Part shown: in pieces, positions 27,981 through 63,489 of the stretch
Numbering within the stretch: the stretch's first letter is position 1
Layout: each line of letters begins with the position of its first letter
Source: Anaerolineae bacterium
GTDB lineage: Bacteria > Chloroflexota > Anaerolineae > JAAYZQ01
Length of the DNA stretch: 64,000 nt
Direction: 5' to 3'
Assembly: GCA_041300865.1 (NCBI GenBank)
Contig: JBFYTF010000172.1
Coordinates: forward strand, 113,754 to 177,753
Translations under genes and position numbers: made by a program
The notes under the pieces: generated by a model
The model's input: the letters and a program-made list of their open reading frames with translations, nothing else
Told to the model about the DNA's origin: nothing
Database searches by the model: none

Positions 27981-28009
27981 TTGACAACGGCGTTCGAACC
28001 GAGTAAAAT
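27981..28009 (+). promoter_or_regulatory. Consensus sigma70-type promoter of the large glycan operon
   Basis: TTGACA-17 nt-TAAAAT, ~135 nt upstream of the NusG-paralog start. Confidence 0.7.
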
Positions 28010-28144
28010 GCAGTGCGTGCGTGATAGACCGATCCCCATTCTCATAAGGCGTCTCGTCGCAGCAAGTATCGCAGGCCCAGCAGAAAGGATGCCCTCGGGG
28101 CAGCCTCTCCGCTTATGGGCAAGGGGAAAAGGGAAAACGACTCG

Positions 28145-28633
28145 ATGATGCACTGGTATGCGCTCTATACTCAGCCGCGCAAAGAACGACAGGTGCACGG
28201 CCTGTTGGAGGAGCGCGGCTTCGAGACCTATCTGCCCACGGCACGGCGCAAGGTCCGACGGCGTGACCGCCCAGACATCATCGTCTATTTCCCCTGTTAT
28301 CTCTTTGCCCGCTTGGACTTTGATATCACGCCACAGTCGTCCATTGCTTGGATGCCCGGCATCCGGCGCATCGTCAGCTTTGGCGACCAAGCCGCGGTCG
28401 TACCTGAGGCGCTCGTGGATTTGATCCGCGAGCGCCTACGCGACGTGGATGATGTGGGTTACCGGCGTCTAAAACAGGGAGACCGTGTCCGGTTTAGCAC
28501 TGGGCCGCTCCGCGACCTGGAGGCCATCTTCGATCGGCCCCTGTCATCCACCGATCGCGTTCGCGTGCTCTTGAACGTCATGGGCCGCATGACGGCCGTT
28601 GACACCGATTATAGCGCCATCGCGCCCCTCTAG
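28145..28633 (+). CDS. Specialised NusG paralog (RfaH/UpxY/LoaP-like transcription antiterminator)
   Basis: 'MMHWYALYTQPRKERQVHGLLEERGFETYLP' is an NGN-type N-terminus. 'KQGDRVRFSTGPLRDLEAIFD' is a KOW-like motif. It is ~162 aa, with no secE/rplK neighbours, and it is the first gene of a polysaccharide operon. The alternative start is 28115. Confidence 0.8.
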   Translation: MMHWYALYTQPRKERQVHGLLEERGFETYLPTARRKVRRRDRPDIIVYFPCYLFARLDFDITPQSSIAWMPGIRRIVSFGDQAAVVPEALVDLIRERLRDVDDVGYRRLKQGDRVRFSTGPLRDLEAIFDRPLSSTDRVRVLLNVMGRMTAVDTDYSAIAPL

Positions 28634-28821
28634 ATCCTGGCGCCGCGCAACGCGGTGCTGTACAGGGCGTCTGGCCCTTTGGTAAAGACGGCACACCGCT
28701 GGCCGTCCCTATATGTTGTCCTGAGTCTGGCACAGCGATGTGCCAGATCGGCGGAGCCTGCCCAGAGAAGGCGTGAGGCCCGGCCGGCTGCCGCGAATTG
28801 ATCCGCGAGGTGAAGAGGCTT

Positions 28822-29841
28822 ATGAAGGCACTGATCACGGGGGGAGCAGGCTTTATCGGCAGCAACCTGGCCCAGCGGCTGATAGAGCAAGGCCACCAGG
28901 TGACCGTCTACGATAACCTGTCGCGCCGGGGTGCAGCCCGGAACGTCGACTGGCTGCGGGCAAGCTATGGGGCGCGCTGGGTGCTGCTGAAAGCCGATGT
29001 CCGCGACATGGATGCGCTGCGCTCCGCCGTGGCGGATGCCGAGCTGGTCTATCACCTGGCCTCCCAGGTGGCCGTCACCACCTCCGTTGAGGATCCTCGC
29101 CACGACTTCGAAGCCAATGCCCTGGGCACATTTAACGTCCTGGAGGCCGCGCGGCTCTCACCCACGCCACCCATTGTCCTCTACGCCTCGACAAACAAGG
29201 TCTATGGTGGCATGGAAGACGTGGTCGTCGTGGAGCGCGAGCACGACTATGCCTACCGCGACTTTCCCCAGGGCATCCCGGAGACGCACCCCCTTGACTT
29301 TCACTCGCCTTATGGTTGCAGCAAAGGCGCCGGGGATCAGTACGTCCGCGATTACGCCCGCATCTATGGTCTGCGTACGGTCGTCTTTCGCCAGAGCTGC
29401 ATCTATGGCACACGCCAGTTCGGCGTCGAGGACCAGGGTTGGGTGGCCTGGTTCCTCATCGCCGCCGTGACCGGCCGGCCCATCACCATTTATGGTGACG
29501 GCAAGCAGGTGCGGGATGTGCTCTGGATCGACGACCTTCTCGACCTGTACCAGGCGGCCGTGGACGGCATTGAAGCTGCCGCCGGCCAGGTCTATAACGT
29601 CGGCGGCGGCCCGGAGAACACTCTGGCCGTCTGGACCGAGCTGGGGCCCATGCTCCGGGACCTTCTAGAAGGCGACGTGCCCGTCGCCCGGGCTGGCTGG
29701 CGACCCGGCGACCAGCGCATTTTTGTGGCCGACATCCGGAAGGCAGAGCGCGAGCTGGGCTGGCGGCCGCGTGTCGGCAAAGAGGAAGGCGTGCGCCGCC
29801 TATACCGGTGGGTTGTTGCGCACAAGGATTTATTCGACTGA
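28822..29841 (+). CDS. Extended SDR, CDP-paratose/tyvelose 2-epimerase-like (RfbE family)
   Basis: GGAGFIGSNL, 'STNKVYG', 'DFHSPYGCSKGAGDQY' and 'GDGKQVRDVL' are colinear with the tyvelose epimerase sequence as I recall it. The ATG at 28822 follows GAAGAGG. Confidence 0.75.
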   Translation: MKALITGGAGFIGSNLAQRLIEQGHQVTVYDNLSRRGAARNVDWLRASYGARWVLLKADVRDMDALRSAVADAELVYHLASQVAVTTSVEDPRHDFEANALGTFNVLEAARLSPTPPIVLYASTNKVYGGMEDVVVVEREHDYAYRDFPQGIPETHPLDFHSPYGCSKGAGDQYVRDYARIYGLRTVVFRQSCIYGTRQFGVEDQGWVAWFLIAAVTGRPITIYGDGKQVRDVLWIDDLLDLYQAAVDGIEAAAGQVYNVGGGPENTLAVWTELGPMLRDLLEGDVPVARAGWRPGDQRIFVADIRKAERELGWRPRVGKEEGVRRLYRWVVAHKDLFD

Positions 29842-29852
29842 GGTCACTGGGC

Positions 29853-30830
29853 ATGAACATTCTCGTGACGGGTGCAGCCGGTTTCATTGGCAGCCAGGTC
29901 GCTGCCCTCCTCCTTGACGGAGGCCACGCCGTTACCGGTGTCGACAACCTGAACGACGCCTACGACGTCCGCCTGAAAGATTGGCGCCTGGCGCGCCTCC
30001 AGAACCGGCCCAACTTTCGCTTTCAACGGCTCGACGTTGCTGACCGCCAGGCCCTGCACCCGTGCTTTTTGAAGCAGCGTTATGACGCAGTGGTGAACCT
30101 CGCCGCCCGGGCCGGCGTCCGCCCCTCGGTGCCCAACCCGTGGGTCTATGTCGAAGCCAATCTGACTGGCACGCTCAACCTGCTGGACATGTGCCGCGAG
30201 TTCAAGGTGGGCAAATTCATCTTGGCCTCCACCTCCAGCCTGTACGGCGCCAACAACCCGCTGCCCTTTCGCGAAGACGCCGACACCGACCGGCCCCTTT
30301 CGCCCTACGCCGCCTCCAAGAAGGCGGCCGAGGTGATGTGCTACACCTACCACGCGCTCCACGGACTGGACGTGACCGTCTTTCGCTACTTCACGGTCTA
30401 TGGCCCCGCGGGGCGGCCCGACATGAGCCCCTTTCGCTTCGTGCAGTGGATCTACGAGGGACGGCCGGTGACCGTCTACGGCGACGGGCGCCAGTCCCGG
30501 GATTTCACCTACGTGGACGATATCGCCCGGGGCACCGTGGCCGGACTCCGGCCCCTGGGCTACCAGGTCATCAACCTCGGCTCCGACCAGCCGGTGGTCC
30601 TGATGGACCTGATACGCCTGGTGGAGGATCTAGCCGGCCGCCAGGCCCACCTGCAGTTTCGCGCCGCCCACCCGGCCGACGTGCCGGCTACCTGGGCGGA
30701 CATCGGCCGCGCGGAGCAGTTCCTCGGCTGGCGACCGCAGGTGACCTTTCGCCAGGGAGTGGAGCACCTGGTGCAGTGGTACCGCGACAACCGCGACTGG
30801 GCGCGCGAGATCGACACCAACGGCGGATAG
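29853..30830 (+). CDS. Extended SDR, UDP-glucuronate 4-epimerase-like
   Basis: 'VTGAAGFIGS', 'DNLNDAYDVRLK', 'YAASKKAAE' (YxxxK) and 'RYFTVYGPAGRPDM' are hallmarks of the Cap1J/WbnF/LpsL group. Confidence 0.8.
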   Translation: MNILVTGAAGFIGSQVAALLLDGGHAVTGVDNLNDAYDVRLKDWRLARLQNRPNFRFQRLDVADRQALHPCFLKQRYDAVVNLAARAGVRPSVPNPWVYVEANLTGTLNLLDMCREFKVGKFILASTSSLYGANNPLPFREDADTDRPLSPYAASKKAAEVMCYTYHALHGLDVTVFRYFTVYGPAGRPDMSPFRFVQWIYEGRPVTVYGDGRQSRDFTYVDDIARGTVAGLRPLGYQVINLGSDQPVVLMDLIRLVEDLAGRQAHLQFRAAHPADVPATWADIGRAEQFLGWRPQVTFRQGVEHLVQWYRDNRDWAREIDTNGG

Positions 30831-30896
30831 AGAAAACGACGATAGTGATCCCGTGCGGCGAATGACTTGAGCGAGGCGTGTACAAGTGGCCGTAAA

Positions 30897-31862: not shown

Positions 31863-31882
31863 TACCAGCTGCAAGGTCCTGA

Positions 31883-33211: not shown

Positions 33212-33222
33212 GGATTGCTCCG

Positions 33223-35681: not shown

Positions 35682-35799
35682 GCAGTGCAAACCTCCTCGC
35701 GTGTTGGCCCTTGGCCCGAACACCGCTGGACCCCACGGCCGGCATGCCCCCAGAGCCCCGGGGCCAGGGCAGCCTGATCCGCCCCATGGGCAGCTTTCG

Positions 35800-36960: not shown

Positions 36961-36966
36961 GGAGAA

Positions 36967-41323: not shown

Positions 41324-41346
41324 AAGCCGAGAGGACCGACCTCGTC

Positions 41347-50703: not shown

Positions 50704-50717
50704 AGGTTCCGGCAGCG

Positions 50718-52010
50718 ATGGACGGTGACGTGATGCCAGCCGCCGAGACAGGGGGCGCCGCGTCCGGCGGCGTGGCGGCCCTTGGCTGCCTCCTGGCCGG
50801 TCGGCCCTGCCCGGCGGATCCGGGGTGGGATTCGGTCGTTTCCCTGGCGCGTGACCACGACCTGTCTCCCCTCCTCTACTGGCGGGCCACGCACCCGCCG
50901 GCCGGGTCGGTGCTGCCGGCCGAGCTCTTACAGGAGCTCAAGAACGATTTCTACCTGGCCCTACGGCGAACGATGCTGGCCGAGCGGCAGCTCGCCGAGC
51001 TGCTGGCAGCTCTGGGCCAGGCAGGAGTGCCCACCCTCGTCCTGAAGGGTTCCGCCGCCGGGGCCTTCTATCCGGACCCGGCCCTGCGTGTGTACGGCGA
51101 CCTAGACTTTCTGGTGCCGAAATCACAAGTCCTTGAGGCAGAGCAGGTGCTCCGGGCTCTCGGTTATCGCTCGCCTCTGTCACGATCGTGGTGGCAGGAG
51201 CACTTCCAGCACCTGCCGCCGATGACCCGAAATCACGGCGAGCTGTGCGTCGAGGTACACTGGAGCCTTGCCCTTCCCGATGCCCACGCCGGCGGCCTGC
51301 CTGCCGAGGATGTCTGGGAGCGGAGCGTGGCGTGGACTCTCGGGCCCGGAGCCGGCCAACCCGCCCTGCGCCTGGACGACGTCGACACGGTCCTGCATCT
51401 CTGCTACCACGCTGCCGTGCAGCACCGGCTGTACCTGGGGCTGCGGCCCCTGGCGGATCTGGCTCAAGTCATAAGCAGCTGGGATCGGGACAAATGGCAG
51501 GCTCTGCTGGGCCGGGCACGTGCCTACGAGTTGGCGAGGCCCGTCGAGCTGGTCGTGGCCCTGGCCGGCAGGTGGCTGTCCCTTGAGCTCCCCCTGGAGG
51601 TTACCAGGACCCTTGAGCCCCTGCTTCCCGTCCTGGACGACTGGCTGGTCCGCCTGGCCTTTCCGAAAGCCGGAGGACCTGCGGCACTTGTCGTGGCCGG
51701 TAGCGCGCCGGGTCTCGGCGCGGGCCTGCGCCATCTCCTCTGGCACCTCTTTCTGCCGCGCGAGGGAATGGCAGTTACCTACGGCATCCCGGCCCGGTCG
51801 CCTTTCATCTGGCTGGCGTACGCGTGGCGGCCCTTTGACCTCCTCCGCAAACATGGCGGCCGGATGTGGCGCGTGTTGCAGGATGATAGGTCGGCTCGCT
51901 CAGCCTGGACTGCTGAGGTCTGGCTCGAGCGTTGGCTGCGTGGTCGGGACGGAGCGCCGCTTGCCAGCAGGGCCGGGCTGGGGCTGGACAAGGAGCCGAT
52001 AAGCGAGTAA
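50718..52010 (+). CDS. Uncharacterised nucleotidyltransferase family protein (NTP_transf_5-like)
   Basis: 'VLKGSAAGAFYPDPALRVYGDLDFLVP' and 'VEVHWSL' are the family signature as I recall it. Confidence 0.65.
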   Translation: MDGDVMPAAETGGAASGGVAALGCLLAGRPCPADPGWDSVVSLARDHDLSPLLYWRATHPPAGSVLPAELLQELKNDFYLALRRTMLAERQLAELLAALGQAGVPTLVLKGSAAGAFYPDPALRVYGDLDFLVPKSQVLEAEQVLRALGYRSPLSRSWWQEHFQHLPPMTRNHGELCVEVHWSLALPDAHAGGLPAEDVWERSVAWTLGPGAGQPALRLDDVDTVLHLCYHAAVQHRLYLGLRPLADLAQVISSWDRDKWQALLGRARAYELARPVELVVALAGRWLSLELPLEVTRTLEPLLPVLDDWLVRLAFPKAGGPAALVVAGSAPGLGAGLRHLLWHLFLPREGMAVTYGIPARSPFIWLAYAWRPFDLLRKHGGRMWRVLQDDRSARSAWTAEVWLERWLRGRDGAPLASRAGLGLDKEPISE

Positions 52011-52104
52011 AATGCGGTTACTCTGGACCTCTGGTAGCGTAACAGCGCGAACGCCGCCCTGGTGCCTTTCGGCCCCGGCCGGAGATCGCTCGATGGAGAG
52101 CTAG

Positions 52105-53802
52105 ATGGAAATCAGGCAGTATTGGAATGTCTTCAAGAAGTGGCTTTGGCTGCTCGCCCTAGGTGCCCTCCTCGCGGGCGGCATCGCCTACGCGGTCAAC
52201 CGCAACACGACGCCAGTCTACCTGGCCGGTACAACACTCATGGTTACGCCCGGCTCTGCCCCGTCCCTGGACAATTACAACGCCCTCTATGCTGCCGAGC
52301 GCCTGGGCCGCACCTACGCCGAGCTGCTGTCCAGCGGGCCGGTCATGGAAGAGACGGAGCGCCGCCTGGCGCAGATGGCCAGCACGGATCCTACCCTCGG
52401 CGACCAGGGGTCGGGCTTTGCCGCGTCGGCGCAGCCCGTGAGCGAAACGCAGCTCCTCAGCCTGCAGGTGACAGGCACCGACCCGCAGCTCATCGCGGCC
52501 GCGGCCGATCTCCTCGTAGAAGTCTTTGGCGAGTGGCTGCTCAACATCCAGCAGTCGCGCTACGGCGAGTCCAAGGCCAGCCTGCAGGCCGAGATGGGCC
52601 GCGTCCAGACCAGCATCCAGGAGCTCGAGGCGGCCATCCGTGATTTGCAGGCGCGACAGCAGGAGGCGGATGCCAACGAGCTGGCGCGCCTCCAGGATCA
52701 GCTTACGCAGTACCGCAGCAGTTACTCCACTCTGCTCAACAGCTACTCGAATATCGCCCTGGCTGAAGCTAGCACAGGCGACACGGTAACCGTCGTCTCC
52801 AGGGCGGAGGTGCCCAGGGTCCCTATCCGGCCGCAAGTAATGCGCAATAGCCTGTTGGCGGCTGTGGCGGGTGTTCTGTTTGCAGCGGGCATCGCCTTCC
52901 TCATAGAATTCCTGGACGACACGGTGAAGACGCCCAGTGATGCGCAGCAGGCTGGGCTGAACGTGCTGGCCACCGTGCAGCGCGCGGGCAGCAACGGCAA
53001 GAAGCGGCCCCAGGAGCTCTTTGCCTTGAGCGAAGCCCGCTCGCCGGTGGGCGAAGCCTACCGTACTCTGCGCACCAACCTCCAGTTCTCTTCTCTCGAC
53101 CGGCCCTTGCGCTGCCTGGTAGTCACCAGTGCCCTGGCGACTGAGGGCAAGACTACGACGGTCGCGAATCTGGCCGTGGTCATGGCCCAGGGTGGCAAGC
53201 GCGTGGTGCTCGTCGATGCCGACCTGCGCCGGCCGTCGGTCCATCGCGTCTTTGGGCTGCCCAACCGGGGCGGGCTGACCGATGCCCTGGTGCAAGAGCT
53301 GGCGGCACTCAACGGCTTCTTGCAGGACACTGGCGTGGAGAACCTGCGGGTTCTGACCTCGGGCCCTATCCCACCCAATCCGCAGGAGCTTCTCGCTTCG
53401 CAGCGCATGGAGGAGCTGCTGCACCGGCTACAGAGCGAGGCCGACATCGTTCTCATCGACACGCCGCCCTCCCTGGTGGTGGCGGACGCCAACGTCCTGG
53501 CCGCCCGCACCGACGGCGTCGTGCTGGTGGTGAACGCCGACCGGACGCGTCGCGTCGCCGTGCAGCAGGCGACCGAGGACCTGCGCCAGGTGGGTGCCAA
53601 TCTGCTGGGCGGTGTGCTGAACATGGTTGACATCCGCCGGGGGCGGGGTGCCGGCTATTACTCCTACCATGGCTACTACTATTCTCAGTATTATGGCGAG
53701 CAGGAAGCCGGTCGCCGGCGCGGGCTGCGGGGCTGGTGGCGCCGCCTGAGACGCAAGAAAAAGGTAGGCGCGCACCGGGGCCCGGTGAGCCCGGCGCCCT
53801 AG
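52105..53802 (+). CDS. Polysaccharide co-polymerase (Wzz domain) fused to BY-type tyrosine autokinase
   Basis: It has an N-terminal TM helix, a coiled-coil periplasmic region and a second TM helix. Kinase motifs are Walker A 'ATEGKTT', A' 'VVLVDADLRRP' and B 'IVLIDTPP'. The C-terminal Tyr cluster is 'GYYSYHGYYYSQYYG'. Confidence 0.85.
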   Translation: MEIRQYWNVFKKWLWLLALGALLAGGIAYAVNRNTTPVYLAGTTLMVTPGSAPSLDNYNALYAAERLGRTYAELLSSGPVMEETERRLAQMASTDPTLGDQGSGFAASAQPVSETQLLSLQVTGTDPQLIAAAADLLVEVFGEWLLNIQQSRYGESKASLQAEMGRVQTSIQELEAAIRDLQARQQEADANELARLQDQLTQYRSSYSTLLNSYSNIALAEASTGDTVTVVSRAEVPRVPIRPQVMRNSLLAAVAGVLFAAGIAFLIEFLDDTVKTPSDAQQAGLNVLATVQRAGSNGKKRPQELFALSEARSPVGEAYRTLRTNLQFSSLDRPLRCLVVTSALATEGKTTTVANLAVVMAQGGKRVVLVDADLRRPSVHRVFGLPNRGGLTDALVQELAALNGFLQDTGVENLRVLTSGPIPPNPQELLASQRMEELLHRLQSEADIVLIDTPPSLVVADANVLAARTDGVVLVVNADRTRRVAVQQATEDLRQVGANLLGGVLNMVDIRRGRGAGYYSYHGYYYSQYYGEQEAGRRRGLRGWWRRLRRKKKVGAHRGPVSPAP

Positions 53803-53829
53803 CGGCAAGCCTGATACGCTCTAGTTGGC

Positions 53830-55125
53830 ATGATGCCCCGACTGAAAGGCTGGTCGCAGACCCTCACGAGCTGGCAGACTGTGGCACTTGGGCCGATCGT
53901 CGTGCCCCTCCTCTTCCCCGACCTGGTGCCCCAACTACTGGTGGTCCTCGCCCTGCTGGGACTCCCTGCACTGTGGCTCCTGTCACGGTGGGGATGTGGT
54001 GTCTTTGTGCCGGCCACTCCCCTGGATCTGCCCTGGCTAGTGGTGCTGCTCGTCTCCCTTGGCACCCTCCTGGCGGCGACTGCGCCTGCGCTGGCTTTGC
54101 CCCAGGTCTTCAAGGTCCTCATTGCCCTGGCCCTGTATTATGGGCTGGTGAACACCCTGCGCAGTGAGACACGTCTCGCCTGGGCAGGGATCGGCCTGCT
54201 GCTGGCGAGCGCAGCTATCGCCGCCGTGGGCCTCGCCGGTATGGGGCCTGGGGGCGCAAGCCCCGCCTCCGTGGCAGGCGGCTCAACAGACCGCCTCTTT
54301 GGCTTGATCACCCCCTTCTGGAACCGCGCGGGGTTCAACCCCAACATCGTCGGGGGGACGCTGGCCGTGATGTTGCCCCTCACCCTGGCGTATGCCTGGG
54401 GCACCGCGGGCTGGCGCCGGCTGCCGTTCATCGCGGCCCTGCTGGCCGAGGGCGCGGCGCTCCTCCTCACGCAATCCCGCGGCGCGATTCTCGGGTTTGC
54501 CGCCGGCGCCGCCGCCGTCGCCCTGGCCCGCGACCGGCGTTGGGGCCTGGTGATCCTTGGCGCCTGCTCCGCCGGTGGGGCTGCCGTCCTGCTCTATCCC
54601 GGGCCGGTCCTGGACATGCTCACGGCGGGGGGCGGGGGGATCATGGACAGTGCTCAGGGGCGGCTGGAGCTTTGGGTGCGGGCGGTGGCCATGGCGACCG
54701 ATTTTCCTTTTACCGGGGTGGGCATGGGCAGCTTTGCCCGGGCCCTGTGGCTGCTCTACCCTCTCGCTTCCGTCGGCCCGGCCACTGTTCTCGACCACGC
54801 CCACAACCTCTTCCTGCAGGCCGCCACGGACTACGGATTGCCTGGCCTGGTCGCCTGGCTGGCGCAGATGTTGCTGCTGCTCTGGATGGCAGTCGGCGCC
54901 GTGCGCGCTGTTCGCGGCGGCAGCCTGTGGCCTCTGGCCGCAGGCCTGCTCGGCGGGTTGGTTGCCTACCTGGTCCACGGCTTGACGGACAGCTTTACCT
55001 ACTATGCCAAGGGCCATACCGTGGTGTGGGGCTGCCTATCGGTGATCGCCGCGCTTTGGCTGGTCCTGCAGGACGGCAGACTGCGCGGGCCCCGGGGGGG
55101 CGCCGGCCCGGTGGGCGCGGAATAG
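53830..55125 (+). CDS. O-antigen ligase / Wzy_C-family membrane protein
   Basis: 'LLLTQSRGAILGF' and 'DHAHNLFLQAATDYGLPGL' are Wzy_C signatures. It has ~11 TM helices. Confidence 0.8.
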   Translation: MMPRLKGWSQTLTSWQTVALGPIVVPLLFPDLVPQLLVVLALLGLPALWLLSRWGCGVFVPATPLDLPWLVVLLVSLGTLLAATAPALALPQVFKVLIALALYYGLVNTLRSETRLAWAGIGLLLASAAIAAVGLAGMGPGGASPASVAGGSTDRLFGLITPFWNRAGFNPNIVGGTLAVMLPLTLAYAWGTAGWRRLPFIAALLAEGAALLLTQSRGAILGFAAGAAAVALARDRRWGLVILGACSAGGAAVLLYPGPVLDMLTAGGGGIMDSAQGRLELWVRAVAMATDFPFTGVGMGSFARALWLLYPLASVGPATVLDHAHNLFLQAATDYGLPGLVAWLAQMLLLLWMAVGAVRAVRGGSLWPLAAGLLGGLVAYLVHGLTDSFTYYAKGHTVVWGCLSVIAALWLVLQDGRLRGPRGGAGPVGAE

Positions 55126-55126
55126 C

Positions 55127-56476
55127 GTGCGCGCCGTCCTGGCTTGGCTCGGCCGGCCACTGCCCATCGTCCTCACGGCGCTGCTGCTGCGCCTGGCCGC
55201 GGCCTGGCTGTTACCGCCGCCGGCCGATTTCGCCTCACGCACCGATAGCGGGCTGACGGCCCTCAACGTGGTGTCGGGGGCGGGATACACCCACGATTTC
55301 TATGGCTGGCGCCCGGGCGCGCCGCTGCAGGCCTACATGCCGCCGCTGCACGTTGCCTGGCTATCCCTGAGCCTGCTTCTGCCCGATCCCCGCCTGGCGC
55401 TCAGCGTCCAGCAGGCCGCCGCGGGCACGTTGGCCGTGTGGCTGGTGTACCGGCTGGCAGCGGCGTTGGCCGGCCCGTTGACCGGCGCACTGGCGGGCTG
55501 GGCCATGGCGCTCTACCCAACGTATATCATCACGACCACGATACCCGAGTCGGTGGCCCTCCTGGTCGCCTGCCTGGCGGCGCTGCTGTTCCTGGCCTGG
55601 CGGCTCTGGGAAAGACCAGGCTTGGGCCGCGCCGCGGCCGCGGGGTTGGCCCTTGGACTCCTGGCCCTGGGCCGGCCTCACGCCCTGCTGCTGGCGCCGG
55701 CGCTGCTCGCCTGGCTGGCCTTCAGGCGCCCCCGGCCCTCAGGGCTGCCGCGGCTGGCCGCGGTCTTATTCCTGGCGGTGGGGCTCGTCGTGGGTCCCTG
55801 GATCTTGCGCAACTCTGTAGTCTTGAAGGAGCCGGCCTTTATCTCGACCAACGGCGGCCGCACCAGCTGGCTCGGCAACAACCCCTTCACCACCGGCTCC
55901 GGCGGCGACGTCTATGCTCGTCGGTTGGCAGCCTACAAGGGCATCGAGCCCGATCTTTCGTCGCCGGAAATAGTAGAGTTTCCCGCTGATTACCCCTTGC
56001 CCCACGGGCTGGAGGCCCAGGTAGCGGTGCTCACGGAGCAGGCCCTGGAACGCGCTTTATATCGGGCAGCCCTGGACTATGCCCGGGCCGAGCCGGCGGA
56101 GTGGCTGGGGCTGGAAGCCCGCAAACTTCTGAGCTTATGGTGGTTCCGGCCCAACCTGGGCGCCAATCCCCAGTACCAGGGAGAGTGGACAGCAGTGTAC
56201 CGCGTCGTGTACAGCGGAGTTGTGGCCGTGGCTTTGGCCGGCTTGGTCCTTTCCCTGCGGCAGGGTGGGTGGCGGCGCTGGGGGCTTCTCTACGCGGTCC
56301 TCGCCGTCCAGTCCGTCGTCTACCTTGGGTTTCACGTCCTCACCCGCTTTCGTTGGGAGATAGAGTTTATCCTGCTCATCCTGGCCTCCTTTGCCGTCGC
56401 CTGGGCCTACGAGAGGGCCGCCATGAAATCCGCCGAGGCCGCGGTCGGGCTCGCTTTTCACGAAGGAGTGCAATGA
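55127..56476 (+). CDS. Polytopic membrane glycosyltransferase, GT-C fold (PMT_2/ArnT-like)
   Basis: It is multi-TM. The first loop is 'RTDSGLTALNVVSGAGYTHDF'. The GTG start is 1 nt after the upstream stop. Confidence 0.6.
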   Translation: MRAVLAWLGRPLPIVLTALLLRLAAAWLLPPPADFASRTDSGLTALNVVSGAGYTHDFYGWRPGAPLQAYMPPLHVAWLSLSLLLPDPRLALSVQQAAAGTLAVWLVYRLAAALAGPLTGALAGWAMALYPTYIITTTIPESVALLVACLAALLFLAWRLWERPGLGRAAAAGLALGLLALGRPHALLLAPALLAWLAFRRPRPSGLPRLAAVLFLAVGLVVGPWILRNSVVLKEPAFISTNGGRTSWLGNNPFTTGSGGDVYARRLAAYKGIEPDLSSPEIVEFPADYPLPHGLEAQVAVLTEQALERALYRAALDYARAEPAEWLGLEARKLLSLWWFRPNLGANPQYQGEWTAVYRVVYSGVVAVALAGLVLSLRQGGWRRWGLLYAVLAVQSVVYLGFHVLTRFRWEIEFILLILASFAVAWAYERAAMKSAEAAVGLAFHEGVQ

Positions 56477-59013
56477 GGCCATTTCTGCTGTCCGTGGCGC
56501 TGTGGCTGACCTTGCTGTCGGGGCTGGCTGCGGCCGGCGACGGGCCGGTAGCTCCCCAGGCGCGAGCCCTCGCCGCCGGCGCAGCCTGCCGGCCCGCGCT
56601 GTTCGAGCGCCAGCGCTACGGGTTCGTGGCCACGCAAGGCTCGTGGCCGCAGACCTTTGATGTGGCGCGCCTGCATGCCGGCTGGGCTGCGGACCACGCC
56701 CTGGGCGCGCCTCCCTCCGGTATGGACCGTGCCCTCGTGCTGCGCACGCCTTACGGCTACCAGGTGGACCCAGCGCTGTTGGGCCCCATCGTAGACGCCA
56801 ATCCCGGCGCGACCTGGCTCATCAGCAACGAGCCCGATTCCATCTGGCAGGACGATCTGCCCCCGGCCGAGTATGCCCGCATTTACCACGACGCCTACGT
56901 CTTCCTGAAGGCGCGTGACGCCAGCGCCCGCGTGGCGGCCGGTGGCATTGTCCAGCCCACACCGCTGCGCCTCCAATACCTCGACCTCGTCCTCGACGCG
57001 TATCGAGCTCGCTACGGCCGCGCCCTGCCTGCCGATCTGTGGCACATCCACAACGCGATCCTCAACGAGGTCAGCTGCAGCTATGATCCGGCGAACTGCT
57101 GGGGTGCCCAGATCCCGACCGGCGTCGACGCTGACTTCGGCGTCCTCAGGGATATCGACGACAACGACAACCTGGACATGTTCAAAGCCCAGATCTGGGC
57201 TTTTCGCCAATGGCTGGCCAGCCGCGGCTACGCCGGGCTGCCTGTTATAGTCTCCGAGTTTGGTGTCCTCATGCCCGAGTCGTACGGCTTTGACCCGGCC
57301 CGCGTGACTGCGTTCATGACCGCCACCTTTGACTTTCTGGCCACGGCCTCCGACCCGCTTCTGGGCGATCCCCTTGACGGGGGCCGCCTGGTGCAGCGCT
57401 GGGCGTGGTTCAGCCTCGATGTGCCGGCCTACGATCCGGAAACGGCGCTGACAGGCTTTAACGGCAACCTTTTTGACCCCAAAACGGCGGATATCACGGC
57501 CTACGGCCTCCACTACGAGGGGCTCACCGCGAGCCTGCCCGCCCTGGACTATGCCGAGCTGGCGCTCATGCGCTGGCAAGTGCCGCCGGTAGGACGGGCC
57601 CTGACGCTGTCGGAGACTGTCACCCTGCCTGTGACGGTGCGCCTGGGCAACAGCGGCACCACGCCCGCCGCGGCCTTTGCTGTGCGCCTGCAGTACAATG
57701 GTGCACGTCACGGCGCTGCGGAGCAGGTTGTGACCGGCCTGCCGTCGTTGGGTTCCGTAGAGCTGACCTTCATCTTGTCCGACCTACTGCCCGGCGTCTA
57801 TGATCTCGACCTGGCCATTGACGCCCTCGACCAGGTGGACGAGCCGGCAGAGTGCGACAACCACCATGTCCGCCGCCTCATCGTGCCCACGCACGTCGTC
57901 TACTTGCCCCTGGTCGTGAACCGCGCCGGCCCGGCCTCCGCCCGGTTGCCCGCAAGTTCCATTTCTCCCCCTTCCTTCGCCGTGGACGAGAGCGGAGTGC
58001 CCGAGTCTTCTCCGCCTTCCCTGGTAGGGAAAGGGGCCGGGGGGGCGGGTTCCCCTGCCCTTCGGGAGTTCCCCTTGCCCCAGCCGGGCAGCTATCCGGG
58101 GCAGCTTGCCCTTGACACTGCCACCGGGGCGGTATGGGTTACCGAGCGTGACGGCAACCGGCTGGCCCGTCTCGATCCTACCGTCGGTGCCTGGGCCGAG
58201 TTCGTCATTCCTACCGGTGCCAGTGAGCCCTGGGGCCTCGCCCTGGATGGAGACGGAAGCCTGTGGTTTGCCGAGACGGCGGGCAACAAGATCGGCCGCC
58301 TGGATCTCGACGGCGGGACCATCGAGGAGTACGGCGGTCTCACGGCGGACAGCGAGCCGTGGGGTGTGGCGGTTGCCGATGGTTACGTGTGGTTCACCGA
58401 GCGGGCGGGCAACAACATCGGCCGCCTCGATTCCACCACCGGCACCCTTGTTGAGTACCCACTCAACGTGGCCGGCTCGCGCCCCTCCGGCCTTTCGGCC
58501 TCGTCCGTCTCGTTTAGCGGGGTCACGCTCTGGTATCTGTGGTTCGCGGAGCCGGGGTCCAACCTGCTGGGCCGCATGCGCTTGGGCGACCCTAAGGTTT
58601 ACGACCTAGCGCCACGCACCGCATACAGCGCTCCCCAGGACGTGGTGTGGGAGGGCGGCACGCCATGGATCACCGAGCTGGCGGCCAACAAGATCGCCAC
58701 GTTCGGTTTCGGCACAACCTCCCTCTGGACAGAGGTGGCCGTGACCACGCCTGACAGCGAGCCGTACGGCATCACCCTCCAGGGCAGCGATCTGGTGTGG
58801 TTTACCGAGCGGGCGGGCAACCGCCTGGGGCGCTACCGGGTCTCCACCGGAGCCCTGGTGGAGTACTCGCTGCCTACGCCGGGAAGCCAGCCGACCGACA
58901 TCGCCGTCGACAGTGCCGGCTGTGCCTGGTACGCCGCCCCAGGAGCCAACCGCATCGGGCGTCTGTGCCCCACGTCCCTTGCGCCCATCTACCTGCCGGT
59001 GGTCATACACTAG
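56473..59013 (+). CDS. Secreted multidomain protein: GH-A 'Glyco_hydro_cc'-like catalytic core + CARDB-like domain + Vgb (streptogramin-lyase)-like beta-propeller
   Basis: The signal peptide is MRPFLLSVALWLTLLSGLAAA. GH motifs are 'WLISNEPD' and 'VIVSEFG'. The CARDB-like stretch includes 'VTLPVTVRLGNSGT'. There are about six repeats of 'EPWG[LV]A...G..WF[AT]E.AGN.IGRLD'. The ATG has an ATGA overlap after GAAGGAG. Confidence 0.75.
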   Translation: MRPFLLSVALWLTLLSGLAAAGDGPVAPQARALAAGAACRPALFERQRYGFVATQGSWPQTFDVARLHAGWAADHALGAPPSGMDRALVLRTPYGYQVDPALLGPIVDANPGATWLISNEPDSIWQDDLPPAEYARIYHDAYVFLKARDASARVAAGGIVQPTPLRLQYLDLVLDAYRARYGRALPADLWHIHNAILNEVSCSYDPANCWGAQIPTGVDADFGVLRDIDDNDNLDMFKAQIWAFRQWLASRGYAGLPVIVSEFGVLMPESYGFDPARVTAFMTATFDFLATASDPLLGDPLDGGRLVQRWAWFSLDVPAYDPETALTGFNGNLFDPKTADITAYGLHYEGLTASLPALDYAELALMRWQVPPVGRALTLSETVTLPVTVRLGNSGTTPAAAFAVRLQYNGARHGAAEQVVTGLPSLGSVELTFILSDLLPGVYDLDLAIDALDQVDEPAECDNHHVRRLIVPTHVVYLPLVVNRAGPASARLPASSISPPSFAVDESGVPESSPPSLVGKGAGGAGSPALREFPLPQPGSYPGQLALDTATGAVWVTERDGNRLARLDPTVGAWAEFVIPTGASEPWGLALDGDGSLWFAETAGNKIGRLDLDGGTIEEYGGLTADSEPWGVAVADGYVWFTERAGNNIGRLDSTTGTLVEYPLNVAGSRPSGLSASSVSFSGVTLWYLWFAEPGSNLLGRMRLGDPKVYDLAPRTAYSAPQDVVWEGGTPWITELAANKIATFGFGTTSLWTEVAVTTPDSEPYGITLQGSDLVWFTERAGNRLGRYRVSTGALVEYSLPTPGSQPTDIAVDSAGCAWYAAPGANRIGRLCPTSLAPIYLPVVIH

Positions 59014-61419
59014 GTGCCGATCGTGATCGATTGGTGGGGTGTCTTTGCCAATGCCCTCTGGCTCGTGGGCCTCGCCGTGGCGCTGGCCGCCCTGAGCATG
59101 GCCACCTTCCGCGCCGGTCAGGCCGGGCACACTCTGAGGGCGGAGTTGGCGCCTCCGGCCTTCCAGGTCCCTCTGCTGGCCGGCCTCCTCCTCTTCTGCC
59201 TGGGCTTGCTCCTGGCAAGCCAATCATGGGCGGAAAGGCTTGTCTGGGCGGCCCTGGCCCTCCTCTGTGGCTTCGTCTCGATTCGTGGCGGGCTGGCGCT
59301 GGCCAGGGCCGGGCGCCAGGCTTCACCCGAGGCCGTCCCATCGCCGGCATCGGCGGCCGGCACCGCGCCGGATGGCTCACTGCCCGTGACCCGCAACGGC
59401 CGCGCGCGGCCCGCTGTCTCTCGCAGCCGGGCGGGCTGCCTGTTGCTTGCTGCCGGCCTGCTGCTCGTGGCCGGCTGGGCGGCCGTCACCGCGGCGCAGC
59501 TCTACGGCCATGGACGTTCGCTGCTGGACCACCTGCAAGCCCTGGAAGGCCTCGCCGCCGGCGACTTGGCCTCGATGGACGTGGCCGGCCTGGCAGGTGC
59601 TGGGGAGCACCTGGGCGGCATGCGCCGCGACCTGGAGGCCATCGCCACCCGGCTGGGCCCGCTGCCCCAGGCCGGCCGGCTGTTGGCCTGGGTGCCGGGC
59701 TACGGCGGAGATCTGGCCGCCGCGCCGGACCTTCTCGACCTGGCGCTGGATGTGTCCGCCGCGGGGGATGGCACCTTCCAGGCCCTTTCCCCGGCACTGG
59801 ACTTGCTGGCCGGCGGTTCAGAGGGGAGCCTCGCCCTTCTCTCTGCCGGCGAGCAGGTTCTGCCCCTCCTGGTCGAGGCCCGGCCCGCCCTCGAGCAGGC
59901 CCGGGCAGACCTGGCTGCTGCGCAACAGGTCCGGGCGGGGATCGAAGCCGGCAGCCTCTCGCCGCGGGTAGCGGGGCTATTGGCGCGCCTGGACGGCACT
60001 CTGCCCCTATTTGCCGCCGCTGTAGACGGGGCGCTGCTGCTGCCCAACCTGTTGGGCGTCGACGGTCCACGCACCTACCTGGTCATGGCCCAGAATAACC
60101 AGGAGCTGCGCGCCACAGGTGGTTTCATCAGCGGCGTCGGAGAGCTGCGGGTGGCCGGCGGGCGGCTGGAGAGCGCAGACACCGGCGGTCAAGGAGGGCT
60201 GGACCTCCGCGACAGCTATGCCGTCGACAACCTGGCGGTGCCCCATGAGGTAGCCCCCGCCGATTTTCAGCAAGTCCTGATGGGTGACCTCATCTTTTTC
60301 CGGGATGCGAATTGGGACCCGGACTTTCCCACTACAGCACGGCGTGCGCTGGAAATCTATGCTCGGGACCAGGGGATCGAGGCTGATGGCGTCGTCGCCC
60401 TGGACCTCACCGCCTTGGAGTTGCTCGTCGCAGCCGCGGGCTCCCTATCTGTGGCCGGCGTTGACGGGCCCGTGGATGCTCGCAACGTGATGCGCGTCAT
60501 CCAGGGGCAGTGGAGCCAGCCGGCAGAGGGCGATGGCAGCGATTGGTGGCTGCACCGCAAAGACTTCATGGGGGACGTAGCCGCCGCCTTGTTCGGGAAG
60601 CTGGCTGAGGCCGAGGGCGTCGAACCGGCGGCCCTGGTCGGCGCCGTCCAGCGCGCCCTGGACGAAAAACACCTCCTGGTCTATCTGCGCGATCCCGCTG
60701 CCGCGGCCTTGCTTCGCGCCCGGAACTGGGACGGCGCGCTGCCGGCCCCCGCCTTCGAGGGCGATTTCCTGATGCTCGTGGACACCAACGCCGGCTTCAA
60801 CAAGGTCGATCCCCGCATCCAGCGCTCGCTCTCTTACCAGGTCGACCTGGCAAGCCGTGAACGTGCTCGCGCACGGGCGACCGCGACCTACCGCCACCGG
60901 GGGCAACAAGCTGTAGGCGATTGTATCCAGGAGGCCCGTTATGGCGAGACGTATGAGGACATGCAGGAGCGCTGTTACTGGGACTATGCCCGCCTGTACG
61001 TGCCGGAGGGCAGCCGGCTGGTGGAGGGGCCAGGCCTGCTAGCTGCACCCCTGGGCAGCCTCATGGCCCGCAGCAGCCTGTCGCTGCCCCTGGAGCCCGC
61101 GCTGGACGCCGGTGATTGGGCCGCCTGGACTGCCTTTTTCTCGCTGGCGCCTACGGAGGAGCGCACCGTCGCCTGGACCTATGACCTGCCCGCGTACGCC
61201 ATCGCCGCCCGGTCCGACGGGCTCCTGGAGTACCGTCTGCGGGTGGCCAAGCAGCCGGGAACGGATGCCATCCCCCTGCGACTCGAGATCCGCCTGCCCA
61301 ACGGCGCCGAGCTGGTGGCGGGCTCCCTTGCGGTGGACACCGATCTGCGCCAAGACCGCGACTTTGTGGTCCTGTACCGGCCGCAGCCCGCCGGGCTGGA
61401 AACGGAAGGGAGGCCGTAA
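59014..61419 (+). CDS. DUF4012-domain membrane-anchored protein
   Basis: It has N-terminal TM helices. 'YLVMAQNNQELRATGGFISGVGEL' is the DUF4012 hallmark as I recall it. The GTG start directly abuts the upstream stop. Confidence 0.7.
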   Translation: MPIVIDWWGVFANALWLVGLAVALAALSMATFRAGQAGHTLRAELAPPAFQVPLLAGLLLFCLGLLLASQSWAERLVWAALALLCGFVSIRGGLALARAGRQASPEAVPSPASAAGTAPDGSLPVTRNGRARPAVSRSRAGCLLLAAGLLLVAGWAAVTAAQLYGHGRSLLDHLQALEGLAAGDLASMDVAGLAGAGEHLGGMRRDLEAIATRLGPLPQAGRLLAWVPGYGGDLAAAPDLLDLALDVSAAGDGTFQALSPALDLLAGGSEGSLALLSAGEQVLPLLVEARPALEQARADLAAAQQVRAGIEAGSLSPRVAGLLARLDGTLPLFAAAVDGALLLPNLLGVDGPRTYLVMAQNNQELRATGGFISGVGELRVAGGRLESADTGGQGGLDLRDSYAVDNLAVPHEVAPADFQQVLMGDLIFFRDANWDPDFPTTARRALEIYARDQGIEADGVVALDLTALELLVAAAGSLSVAGVDGPVDARNVMRVIQGQWSQPAEGDGSDWWLHRKDFMGDVAAALFGKLAEAEGVEPAALVGAVQRALDEKHLLVYLRDPAAAALLRARNWDGALPAPAFEGDFLMLVDTNAGFNKVDPRIQRSLSYQVDLASRERARARATATYRHRGQQAVGDCIQEARYGETYEDMQERCYWDYARLYVPEGSRLVEGPGLLAAPLGSLMARSSLSLPLEPALDAGDWAAWTAFFSLAPTEERTVAWTYDLPAYAIAARSDGLLEYRLRVAKQPGTDAIPLRLEIRLPNGAELVAGSLAVDTDLRQDRDFVVLYRPQPAGLETEGRP

Positions 61420-61443
61420 CGGGGCGATGAGAGGAGAAACGCC

Positions 61444-62118
61444 GTGAACGATAGCGCGCACGACCGCCGCATCTTGGTTCTGGCGCTGCTGGCCGTCCTG
61501 GCCCTGCGGTTGGTGGCTTGGACGGGCGGTGAGGCTGGCCTGGTGCATGCCGGCCAGACGATTCCCACCCGGACGCCCACCGGGCAGCCGGTGACGCCGC
61601 CGCCGGTAGGGCCGAGCCGCACACCGCCGCCGGGTGAGCCTACCCAGCAGCCCTCTCCCACGACGGCCCCGCCGGCGGCGACGTCCCCCGAGCCGGCCGG
61701 CGCCACAGCGTCTGCCACGCCTCTGTCAGGAGGCAGCCCGGCGCCGCCTACTGCCACGCCGGCTGTGGGCACGCCCACGCCCATGTCCGGCACGCCCCCG
61801 TCCACCGCGAGCGCGGTTACCGCGCCTGCCGAGTCACCGCCCGCAGCTGTGGAAAGCATCACAGCCGGTCCCGGCGAGCCCACCTCGGCCGCGCCCGCGG
61901 TCACCCTCACGCCCGAGATGCCAGGCCCGACGGCGGAACCACTCCCCACGCCCCTACTGGTGGGCGGCGAGCCAGAAGGCGCCGCGGTAGGAGGCTCGCA
62001 AAGCGCGACCGGAGGCCTGGCCGCGGTCCTGCTGTCGCCCTGCCTGTGGATCGGGCTGGGGTTGCTCCTCATGGCTGCGGGTGCGGCGATCCTGCTAACC
62101 AGGCGGCGCGCAGCCTGA
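61444..62118 (+). CDS. Pro/Thr/Ala-rich low-complexity surface protein with signal peptide and C-terminal TM anchor plus basic tail
   Basis: 224 aa. The signal peptide is ILVLALLAVLALRLVAW..VHA. About 150 aa of PT/A/S-rich sequence follow. The C-terminus is 'QSATGGLAAVLLSPCLWIGLGLLLMAAGAAILLTRRRAA'. The GTG follows GAGAGGAG. Codon-level support is weak in low-complexity sequence. Confidence 0.55.
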   Translation: MNDSAHDRRILVLALLAVLALRLVAWTGGEAGLVHAGQTIPTRTPTGQPVTPPPVGPSRTPPPGEPTQQPSPTTAPPAATSPEPAGATASATPLSGGSPAPPTATPAVGTPTPMSGTPPSTASAVTAPAESPPAAVESITAGPGEPTSAAPAVTLTPEMPGPTAEPLPTPLLVGGEPEGAAVGGSQSATGGLAAVLLSPCLWIGLGLLLMAAGAAILLTRRRAA

Positions 62119-63440
62119 TGCGACGGACGGTCACTATCACGGCCCTGCTGCTCCTGACCGGTGGACTGGGCCTGGTGGTCGGCGGCATACTCGTCCTGCA
62201 GCAAGGGACCGGATTGGCTGCGCTGTCGGGCACGCCGTCCGCCACGGCGTCGCCGCCACCGACGCTCACCGAGCAGATTCTGCCGCCACCGCCCACGGCG
62301 ACCCCGGCACCGGCCGGCCTGCAACCCTCGGAAGGCGGCGCTGGCACGCCCGTCTCCGCGTCCACGCTCCCACCGGCCGTTGCGCCGCCGTCGCCCGGGG
62401 AGAGCACTGCACCCCCGGCGCAGCCGTCCGCGGCCTCTGCGTCGGTGCTCAGCCCGACGGCGAGCCCGTCGCTATCGCCCACCTCTTCCCCCACCGCGCT
62501 GCCCAACACGCCCACGCCCTTGGCGCTCTACTCTCTGCGAGAACGCGTAGGCGTGGGCAGCGGGCTACGCCGCGTGACGCCCGAGCTTGTCAGCTTGTTG
62601 GGCTTTGGCTGGTACCTTGATTGGACCGTGCGCTCCGAGGGGTTGCGCGCGGCCGAGGTCAGTTACATGCCCATGATCCGCCTGCGCAATGGCCAGATCA
62701 CGCCCTCTGGCGACGCCCTGCTGGCGGCCGTGGATGCCCTGCCTGGAGCGCTGTGGCTCATCGGCAACGAGCCGGACGTGAAGTGGCAGGACGACGTCAC
62801 ACCCGAGGCCTACGCCCAGGCCTATCACGATCTCTATGCCCTCCTCAAGGCGCGAGATCCCACCTGCCAGGTGGCCATCGCCGGGGTCTCGCAGCCTACG
62901 CCTCTCCGCCTGCGCTACCTCGACCGGGTCTTACAGGCCTACCATCAGCGCTATGGTCACGAGATGCCGGTCGACGTCTGGAACGTGCACAATTTCGTGT
63001 TGCGCGAGGAGCGGGGCAGTTGGGGTGTGGACATTCCCCCCGGAATGGACGACGCTGCCGGGCGGCTGTATGACATCGACGACCACGACGACCTCGCCCT
63101 CTTTCGCCAACAGCTCGTCGACTTCCGCCGCTGGCTGAAGGAGCGCGGCCAGCAGGACAAACAGCTGATCGTCACCGAGTACGGCATTCTCATGCCCGGC
63201 GAGTACGGCTTTCCCCCCGAAGCCGTACGCCAGTTCATGCTCGACACCTTCGAGCTGATGCGCACGCTGGCGGACCCGGACCTGGGCCAGCCCGCTGACG
63301 GGGGCCGGCTGGTGCAGCGCTGGTGCTGGTTCAGCCTACAGGACGAGCGCTATCCTACCGGCGACCTTGTCCAGCCGGGCAGCGGGCAGCGCACGCTCCT
63401 CGGAGATGCCTTTGCGGGGTATACAACCTCTGAGCGGTGA
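62118..63440 (+). CDS. Anchored/secreted GH-A 'Glyco_hydro_cc'-like hydrolase, paralog of the N-domain of the 56473 protein
   Basis: It has an N-terminal TM/signal and a ~130-aa PT/S-rich linker. 'WLIGNEPD', 'LIVTEYG' and 'GGRLVQRWCWFSL' are colinear with 56473-57600. The ATG overlaps the upstream stop (TGATG). Confidence 0.75.
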   Translation: MRRTVTITALLLLTGGLGLVVGGILVLQQGTGLAALSGTPSATASPPPTLTEQILPPPPTATPAPAGLQPSEGGAGTPVSASTLPPAVAPPSPGESTAPPAQPSAASASVLSPTASPSLSPTSSPTALPNTPTPLALYSLRERVGVGSGLRRVTPELVSLLGFGWYLDWTVRSEGLRAAEVSYMPMIRLRNGQITPSGDALLAAVDALPGALWLIGNEPDVKWQDDVTPEAYAQAYHDLYALLKARDPTCQVAIAGVSQPTPLRLRYLDRVLQAYHQRYGHEMPVDVWNVHNFVLREERGSWGVDIPPGMDDAAGRLYDIDDHDDLALFRQQLVDFRRWLKERGQQDKQLIVTEYGILMPGEYGFPPEAVRQFMLDTFELMRTLADPDLGQPADGGRLVQRWCWFSLQDERYPTGDLVQPGSGQRTLLGDAFAGYTTSER

Positions 63441-63454
63441 AGGGGCAGACAATA

Positions 63455-63489
63455 GAAAAAAAGCTCCCATATGTGTGGGAGCTTTTTTG
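63455..63489. terminator. Bidirectional rho-independent terminator
   Basis: The sequence is AAAAAAA-GCTCCCA-loop-TGGGAGC-TTTTTT. It lies between the end of the + operon and the 3' end of the minus-strand tRNA-Gln. Confidence 0.85.

Follow-up and report, generated by a model that had tools for sequence, protein, structure and literature searches.

A conserved hairpin-box element downstream of an RfaH-like NusG paralog gene, a candidate recruitment site at Chloroflexota glycan loci

Layout of the locus

The sequence analysed is a 64-kb stretch of DNA from an Anaerolineae bacterium of the Chloroflexota (contig JBFYTF010000172.1). The whole stretch is referred to below as the window, and all positions are counted along it. 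The window has a G+C content of 65.6%, and its nearest relatives are metagenome-assembled genomes of Anaerolineae/Chloroflexota. It contains a 35-kb polysaccharide cluster of 26 open reading frames (ORFs), all co-directional on the + strand and ending at 63440, the first of which encodes a paralog of NusG. In the gap between this gene and gene 2 lie a conserved hairpin and a short box resembling the ops and opsX sites of other phyla, together termed here the hairpin-box element. The head of the cluster is arranged as follows.

27981-28009, + strand: promoter P1, TTGACA-17 nt-TAAAAT, the sole 11/12 consensus match in 27.5-46 kb
28010-28144, + strand: 5' leader of the paralog gene, ~128 nt as RNA, in which a conserved element was not found
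28145-28633, + strand: gene 1, the NusG paralog gene, 162 residues, with an NGN domain, a basic hairpin and a predicted KOW β-barrel
28726-28747, + strand: conserved hairpin TCTGGCAC-AGCGAT-GTGCCAGA with an 8-bp stem, a putative nascent-RNA pause hairpin
28750-28762, + strand: ops-like box GGCGGAGCCTGCC, present as a single exact copy in the window

A preliminary description of this DNA had proposed a TTGACA-17-TAAAAT promoter, a first ORF of ~162 residues with an NGN-type N-terminus and a KOW-like motif, and a run of 26 + strand ORFs of polysaccharide type. All of this stands. The promoter lies at exactly the position given, the ORF list and Pfam scans return the 26 ORFs with their polysaccharide domains, and both parts of the first protein are recovered by the searches below. 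The spacing of the genes and the lack of a strong terminator before the cluster end, also described there, hold equally and are detailed with the remaining genes.

The NusG paralog

The start of the first ORF is placed at 28145, giving a protein of 162 residues that begins MMHWY, because nearly all homologues are 162 residues long and begin MxHWY; an alternative ATG lies at 28115. Residues 12-104 of the 172-residue form match the Pfam NGN model (PF02357) with 58.6 bits against a cutoff of 22.2. For the C-terminal ~50 residues (109-160) a search of the PDB returned isolated KOW chains of NusG (1nz9 and 2kvq, E ~1e-3), and the Pfam KOW model gives no match to the protein at E<0.01. An AlphaFold2 model calculated from a 120-sequence alignment (pLDDT 82.9) consists of an NGN domain and a β-barrel KOW C-terminal domain (CTD), the strands of which span residues 114-117, 126-132, 138-145 and 148-155, with no α-helical hairpin. 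In Foldseek comparisons this model aligns over its full length with NusG and with 'fully recruited RfaH' (8phk); autoinhibited RfaH aligns with it over the NGN domain only. The CTD is predicted on this basis to be a permanent β-barrel, free of RfaH-type autoinhibition.

Scoring against the NCBIfam hidden Markov models (HMMs) places the window protein below every curated cutoff. The highest score is obtained with RfaH (96.9 bits against 144.5 for the first model of the TIGR01955/NF006534 pair, and 67.5 against 124 for the second), followed by UpxY (NF033644, 59.3 against 100), LoaP (NF033641, 40.0 against 125) and NusG (TIGR00922, 37.9 against 135.7). The order RfaH > UpxY > LoaP/NusG is repeated in 10 divergent relatives (43-62% identity), with scores of 86-113 bits for RfaH, 56-84 for UpxY and 37-69 for NusG. 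The best sequence match in the PDB is E. coli RfaH (residues 1-148, 39.8 bits), with NusG at 34.6 bits. By sequence the paralog is closest to RfaH, yet by curated criteria it lies outside RfaH, UpxY, LoaP and housekeeping NusG alike.

The gene is flanked by a TP_methylase-MazG fusion upstream and an SDR epimerase gene downstream, not by secE and rplK. Because the NusG score is below its cutoff and the neighbours are mazG and sugar genes, with no secE/rplK, the protein is assigned as a specialised NusG paralog (NusG-SP) and not as housekeeping NusG, in agreement with the preliminary description. The family to which it belongs comprises at least 376 sequence clusters and 491 confirmed metagenome stretches, and hundreds of its members carry the JGI machine annotation 'transcriptional antiterminator RfaH'. 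A basic hairpin, LPTxRRKVRRRDRP (LPTVRRKVRRRDRP), is near-invariant in the family.

A hairpin-box element downstream of the paralog gene

For comparison 87 related loci were fetched, 7 from genomes and 80 from metagenomes, of which 81 were eligible and 69 non-redundant; individual loci are given numbers with the prefix L. The 8-mer GGCGGAGC, which makes up positions 1-8 of the box, is found no more than 350 nt 3' of the paralog stop codon in 66 of the 81 eligible loci, always on the coding strand. The remaining 324 kb contain 30 forward and 7 reverse copies, a background of 0.03 per 350 nt. When 8-mers were counted de novo, the same 8-mer came out top downstream of the paralog in 54 of the 69 non-redundant loci, against a background of 0.02 per 350 nt, and it is kept in 34 of the 40 loci whose paralog is less than 56% identical (down to 43%) to that of the window. 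The site lies 57-300 nt past the paralog stop across the loci, and in the window it lies 63 nt before the start codon of gene 2. Positions outside the 8-mer query are conserved as well: G-4 in all 62 elements compared, C13 in 60, G11 in 59, and A-3 and T10 in 58 each.

A covariance model built from 30 elements gives one significant match in the 64-kb window (28727-28765, 41.6 bits, E 2.8e-10). Among the related loci its matches at E below ~0.1 are all on the + strand and nearly all just 3' of the paralog gene.

The box is preceded by the hairpin, from which it is separated in the window by a 2-nt spacer (TC). The hairpin is present in 62 unique elements, and its 3' arm always ends at a G located 4 nt before the box. 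This conserved stem-closing G is 28746 in the window, where an extra T-A pair extends the stem to 28747. The stem sequences vary by clade with pairing kept, as in CTGGCAC/GTGCCAG, CTGAC/GTCAG, CCGACGTTTC/GAAGCGTCGG, CAGTGCTTGC/GCAAGCACTG and CGGCGC/GCGTCG. In the covariance-model alignment, which was fitted to the structure and hence leans towards it, 91.5% of cells pair, compared with 25-53% when the partners are slid; four of the five pairs are changed on both sides, and none of 500 shuffles attains the observed values. A helix search anchored on the G, which is independent of that alignment, gave a mean score of 16.7, where random G anchors gave 9.4±3.8, and the score was highest at the -4 anchor. 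RNAalifold applied to plain MAFFT alignments missed the hairpin and found only a GGC-GGA-GCC mini-stem, because the 5' arms are out of register between clades; the hairpin was therefore assessed by the anchored search with its controls and by the covariance model.

The box may also form a structure of its own. As single-stranded DNA the 11-mer GGCGG-AGCYTG part of it folds into a 3-bp stem with a 3-nt loop, (((...))), at -1.4 kcal/mol compared with -0.9 for ops, and the core GCG-G-AGC (GCGGAGC, 28751-28757) could form such a mini-hairpin in the non-template strand. Elemental pause sites reportedly share a consensus of G at -10, a pyrimidine at -1 and G at +1. An RNA 3' end at T10 of the box would give exactly these bases, with the hairpin ending at -13 or -14. 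In the window this geometry predicts a pause at which T28759 is the last RNA nucleotide and G28760 is +1.

The preliminary description had expected a recruitment element in either 28010-28144 or 28634-28821. The comparison of related loci yields a strong, ops-like candidate in the second interval (28726-28762). The first interval did not hold up, as an alignment of 19 leaders is conserved only at the promoter and the start codon; leader length ranges from ~25 to ~165 nt between loci. Other forward copies of GGCGGAGC in the related loci, for example ~340 nt upstream and ~1.1 kb downstream of the paralog, are coding coincidences within mazG and epimerase genes and have neither the YTGCC tail nor the hairpin. 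The hairpin itself is ruled out as an intrinsic terminator, since no T-tract (U-tract in the RNA) follows it. A separate GC-rich hairpin, GGCGCCGCG-CAA-CGCGGTGCC, lies directly 3' of the paralog stop at 28636-28666, also without a T-tract, and a differing hairpin occupies the equivalent position in L001. In Rfam 15 no family matches 28700-28800 even at E<=10, including JUMPstart (RF01707) and Chloroflexi-1, and three tRNAs are the sole matches of the whole window above the gathering thresholds.

Gene content and transcription signals of the cluster

The remaining features are listed below; genes 2-19 were delimited from Pfam scans and junction analysis, and genes 20-26 from Pfam and NCBIfam scans.

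28822-52010, + strand: genes 2-19
51985-52013, + strand: candidate internal promoter P2, TGGACA-17-TAAAAT, preceding gene 20 (the Wzz/kinase gene)
52105-63440, + strand: genes 20-26
63457-63488, both strands: perfect bidirectional intrinsic terminator AAAAAAGCTCCCA-loop-TGGGAGCTTTTTT, its 13-bp stem bordered by runs of A and T
63494-63564, - strand: tRNA gene, convergent with the cluster
23323-23395 and 23434-23506, - strand: two further tRNA genes of the window

Genes 2-19 encode SDR epimerases/dehydratases, sugar-nucleotide enzymes, an FkbM methyltransferase, a Wzx-type Polysacc_synt flippase, GT2 and GT4 transferases, an AsnB-like amidotransferase, hexapeptide acetyltransferases, a DegT aminotransferase, an NTP_transf_5 protein and a GT4 domain fused to a Bac_transf initiating phosphoglycosyl transferase. 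Genes 20-26 continue with a Wzz/GNVR/P-loop BY-kinase-like protein, a Wzy_C polymerase/ligase, a PMT_2 glycosyltransferase, a Vgb_lyase/CARDB β-propeller protein, a DUF4012 protein, a small protein and a glycosyl hydrolase. Judged by these domains, the cluster encodes a Wzx/Wzy-type polysaccharide pathway. Two of the products are unusual company at a glycan locus. One (56473-59013) is a protein of ~850 residues with Vgb_lyase/NHL β-propeller and CARDB domains, and the other (61444-62118) is a 224-residue protein without a Pfam domain, the C-terminus of which is weakly sorting-signal-like (CoaP_CTERM, LAVTG).

Taking the most plausible start codons, seven junctions overlap (34722, 38559, 40163, 44514, 49132, 56473 and 62118), the number given in the preliminary description. 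The remaining gaps are at most 36 nt, with the exception of the 188 nt after gene 1 and the 94 nt at 52011-52104 before gene 20. Terminator-like sites inside the cluster are weak and occur near the chance rate (15 against 14.3 expected, and 14 against 8.6). The terminator at 63457-63488 is the sole strong one found for the cluster and also serves the convergent tRNA gene.

The second promoter-like site, P2, does not appear in the preliminary description. It has in common with P1 the 11-nt string GAGTAAAATGC, an extended -10 context, and the TAA stop codon of gene 19 falls within its -10 hexamer. It adjoins the only other long gap, with a leader at 52014-52104, and genes 20-26 may form a sub-operon or sub-transcript with its own start at this site. 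The covariance-model search of the window found no ops-like box after P2. Positions 52033-52040 of its leader read GGTAGCGT, identical to positions 4-11 of the E. coli ops, which may be meaningless, as chance alone should give about two 8-mer matches of this kind over both strands of a 64-kb sequence.

Upstream of P1 lies the TP_methylase-MazG fusion gene (26459-27925), and the order of mazG followed by the paralog is kept in many related loci. Of 83 related loci, 27 have a promoter of the form TTGACA-N16-18-TAnnnT 5' of the paralog gene. Hardly any spacer separates mazG from the paralog in L011, L036, L038 and L039, and a promoter is not visible there.

Variation among related loci

The element is retained with differing downstream genes. 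These are mostly glycan genes (SDR epimerases, GT2/GT4 transferases, Wzz-kinase, UDP-glucose dehydrogenase and WecB). Occasionally the next gene encodes a tyrosine recombinase, an insertion sequence transposase, a HepT/MNT pair, a GAF-GGDEF protein or a response regulator, and in L052 and L006, for example, glycan genes lie further downstream of such a gene. As the element is kept at 43-55% paralog identity and with varied next genes, it tracks the paralog and not the cargo. One locus (L068, 538-2034) contains two tandem paralog genes with one hairpin-box each, and another (L012, 2615-2694) contains two complete elements 42 nt apart.

A tyrosine recombinase (Phage_integrase) is the first gene after the box in several distant clades (L062 3716-4714, L064 1190-2167, L076 3715-4719, and L055, L056 and L059). 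The recombinase gene of L062 precedes PAPS-reductase-like and phosphodiesterase genes. Such recombinases could mark mobile islands or invertible segments at glycan loci.

A model for loading of the paralog and its alternatives

Taken together with the known behaviour of related proteins, these observations suggest that the first gene probably encodes an operon-specific NusG paralog that loads at the hairpin-box and antiterminates the cluster. Transcription from P1 would cross the paralog gene and, ~95 nt past its stop codon, meet a composite signal of ~37 bp. A nascent RNA hairpin would form there with its 3' arm ending 13-14 nt behind the RNA 3' end, and RNA polymerase would pause at GGCGGAGCCT|G, in keeping with the G -10, pyrimidine -1, G +1 pattern. 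The non-template GCGGAGC would then be exposed in the bubble, able to form the GCG-N-AGC mini-hairpin, and the NGN domain of the paralog would recognise the paused complex, probably via the non-template DNA; the invariant basic β-hairpin may contact upstream DNA as well. Remaining bound, the paralog would leave a modified polymerase that resists pausing and termination over the 25 downstream glycan genes until 63457-63488. Antitermination by the paralog is in this scheme suggested by homology and context. With a CTD predicted not to be autoinhibited and a gene placed immediately 5' of the site, the paralog may owe part of its specificity to loading in cis, near the place of its synthesis. Both features fit the cis-recruitment idea put forward for monomorphic RfaH-like proteins in section 8 of a bioRxiv 2026 preprint (PMC13015549).

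Several observations weigh against this interpretation. The invariance of box positions 1-8 is partly by construction because the element set was searched with that 8-mer, a bias that the de novo 8-mer count and the covariance-model search reduce and do not remove. RfaH is said to read ops through K10, H20, R23, Q24 and R73 together with an HTT motif. When the window protein is aligned with E. coli RfaH, it has L20, E23 and P71 in place of H20, R23 and R73, and QSS in place of HTT. K10 and Q24 both agree with the family consensus, but the window protein itself has Q and R, respectively, at these two positions. Since these residues are mostly unconserved, any read-out of DNA must use different contacts. 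Furthermore, no strong internal intrinsic terminator that would obviously need antitermination is predicted inside the cluster, Rho-dependent termination being outside such prediction. The second promoter-like site means that a single operon or transcript is unproven, and through P2 the distal genes may be partly independent of P1. Finally, the canonical element is missing in 15 of the 81 loci. In eight of these (L002, L011, L013, L014, L024, L036, L038 and L039) the paralog directly abuts an epimerase gene, and three others (L080, L081 and L083) resemble orphan paralog genes followed by a terminator-like hairpin. Alternative motifs sought in element-less loci, namely CATCGCGGCAGCGAGCT common to the 5' leaders of L002 and L014 and GGCGGC variants in L013 and L024, were not convincing.

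One alternative is that the paralog is recruited by RNA in the manner proposed for LoaP, which is thought to bind a leader RNA hairpin (PMC11685472). The nascent hairpin and its single-stranded 3' tail GGCGGAGC would then be recognised and the box would be an RNA-binding site. Conservation of a hairpin in structure and not in sequence is typical of RNA elements. The hairpin-box also occurs strictly on one strand, and the ops-contacting residues of RfaH, being mostly unconserved, point in the same direction. However, the variable sequence also argues against the hairpin being read sequence-specifically, and the box matches the DNA-read cores of ops and opsX almost base for base and lies exactly at the place expected for the non-template strand in a bubble paused at the consensus. 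With the LoaP HMM in addition among the weakest of the four matches, recognition of RNA is considered unlikely.

Somewhat less probable again is that the hairpin-box has no part in loading and is instead a signal for mRNA processing or stability, an attenuator, or the site of another regulator that sets the ratio of paralog to downstream mRNA, with the paralog acting site-free or not on the operon. Its position resembles a 3' untranslated or intercistronic region, where processing and stability hairpins are common, and 15 of the 81 loci do without the element. A generic stability hairpin, however, would not be expected to carry an invariant 13-nt tail across paralogs of 43-100% identity, nor to match ops, opsX and the pause consensus. 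The missing U-tract excludes an intrinsic terminator, and the element follows the paralog whatever the next gene, even to the point of each tandem paralog in L068 having its own copy. That the ORF is a housekeeping NusG or a decaying duplicate heading an ordinary cluster is effectively refuted: its NGN-KOW architecture and NusG-like predicted fold would suit this, but the NusG score falls far short of its cutoff and below those of RfaH and UpxY, the context lacks secE and rplK and has mazG as upstream neighbour, and the family runs to hundreds of members, which share strongly conserved residues and a conserved place heading glycan loci.

Significance

To our knowledge, recruitment sites have been established experimentally for only a few NusG paralogs, namely RfaH, UpxY and, in part, LoaP. 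The hairpin-box thus provides a precise and testable candidate site for a large uncultured Chloroflexota lineage. The protein is of a kind already known; what is new here is the conserved hairpin-box, the resemblance to ops and opsX that it shows across phyla, and its location 3' of the paralog gene. Judged from Rfam 15 and the literature, the element is apparently undescribed. Literature searches found no paper pairing NusG paralogs with Chloroflexi or NusG with Anaerolineae, and none describing the hairpin-box motif. The matches to GGCGGAGC, among the matches listed, were unrelated, and the four for RfaH with Chloroflex did not look relevant, as judged by title except for Weinberg 2010 (JUMPstart). 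Chloroflexi are not mentioned in the supplement text available for Wang et al. (2020).

The near-identity of the box, ops and opsX in three phyla bears on whether recognition of a DNA hairpin is ancestral, transferred or convergent. RfaH occurs mostly in Proteobacteria (95%), with matches in 23 of 117 phyla, and its sequence-specific DNA contacts have been argued to be acquired last (Wang et al., 2020; PMC7593976). A more speculative proposal, which we hold only tentatively and think rather doubtful, is that a non-template 'GCG-N(1-2)-AGC ... TG' hairpin at a consensus pause is an ancient recruitment code shared by the NusG paralogs of Proteobacteria, Bacteroidota and Chloroflexota, the last maybe in a cis-loading layout. 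If so, the code was not acquired late within Proteobacteria. The cis-loading layout, if real, would mean that a non-autoinhibited paralog, translated just upstream of its site, boards the polymerase that transcribed its own gene, and that operon specificity can do without autoinhibition and without an anti-factor. A site located 3' of the paralog gene, combined with a protein predicted not to be autoinhibited, makes a natural test case for the cis-recruitment model. In addition, the covariance model could flag the starts of antiterminated glycan operons in Anaerolineae metagenomes.

Comparison with known systems

The closest parallel in architecture is the UpxY/opsX system of Bacteroides. The opsX site of ~40 bp has two parts, a pause hairpin in the nascent RNA, which extends to -9 to -14 relative to the pause, and the hairpin YGCGNAGCR in the non-template strand; class-1 UpxY proteins have a conserved basic β2-β3 hairpin and read upstream duplex DNA too (Saba et al., 2024; PMC11685472). 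In the window, similarly, the NusG-SP gene is the first of a polysaccharide locus, and glycan genes also follow the paralog in divergent loci. The composite site of ~37 bp would likewise join an RNA hairpin to a GCG-N-AGC mini-hairpin at a consensus pause. A basic β-hairpin is again present in the NGN domain (RRKVRRRDRP in the family), and an RfaH-type α-helical CTD is not predicted. The arrangement differs in that opsX is located in the 5' leader, with the upxY start codon at +9 to +111 from the pause, whereas the site described here follows the paralog stop codon, so that the paralog gene would be transcribed before the polymerase is modified. There is no UpxZ-like second gene, gene 2 encoding an SDR epimerase/dehydratase. 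The box is essentially invariant across the family, in contrast to the locus-specific sites of Bacteroides. The UpxY HMM score (59.3 bits) is also below the cutoff of 100, and the phylum is different.

With RfaH the likeness is in the protein and the box. RfaH is the best HMM match and the best sequence match among solved structures, and it also targets long glycan operons. The E. coli ops is GGCGGTAGCGTG, with a non-template hairpin GCGGTAGC (PMC11685472). The box GGCGG-AGCYTG corresponds to this sequence without T6 and with G10 replaced by a pyrimidine, and the T|G pause geometry is the same. Positions 28750-28760 (GGCGGAGCCTG) are not an exact ops, as T6 of the 12-nt ops (GGCGGTAGNNTG) is deleted. 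Unlike the paralog gene, rfaH of E. coli is unlinked to the operons that carry ops; its product works in trans and is autoinhibited by an α-helical CTD. RfaH reads a flipped-out T6, the base missing from the box described here, and the ops pause needs no RNA hairpin. The unconserved H20, R23, R73 and HTT, the score of 96.9 bits below the cutoff of 144.5 and the lack of a match to the Rfam JUMPstart (RF01707) at E<=10 further separate the two systems.

LoaP of Bacillus resembles the paralog in being a NusG-SP encoded in or next to the long operon it controls, and in having a hairpin-containing recruitment region. It differs in controlling polyketide operons and as a proposed binder of leader RNA; the paralog scores 40 bits against the LoaP cutoff of 125, and an ops-like DNA box is undescribed for LoaP. 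The cis-encoded, non-autoinhibited 'monomorphic' RfaH-like proteins described in section 8 of the bioRxiv preprint (PMC13015549) are found near long operons and share with the paralog a predicted permanent β-barrel CTD, a gene in or next to a long lipopolysaccharide or polysaccharide operon, and proposed recruitment in cis. A conserved site was not found for them, as far as the available part of that preprint goes, and Chloroflexota are not mentioned in its available text, whereas a specific and widely conserved candidate site accompanies the paralog here. Compared with all of these, and judged by its sequence, the element of the Chloroflexota family is opsX-like in its architecture, with a box that is almost that of ops.

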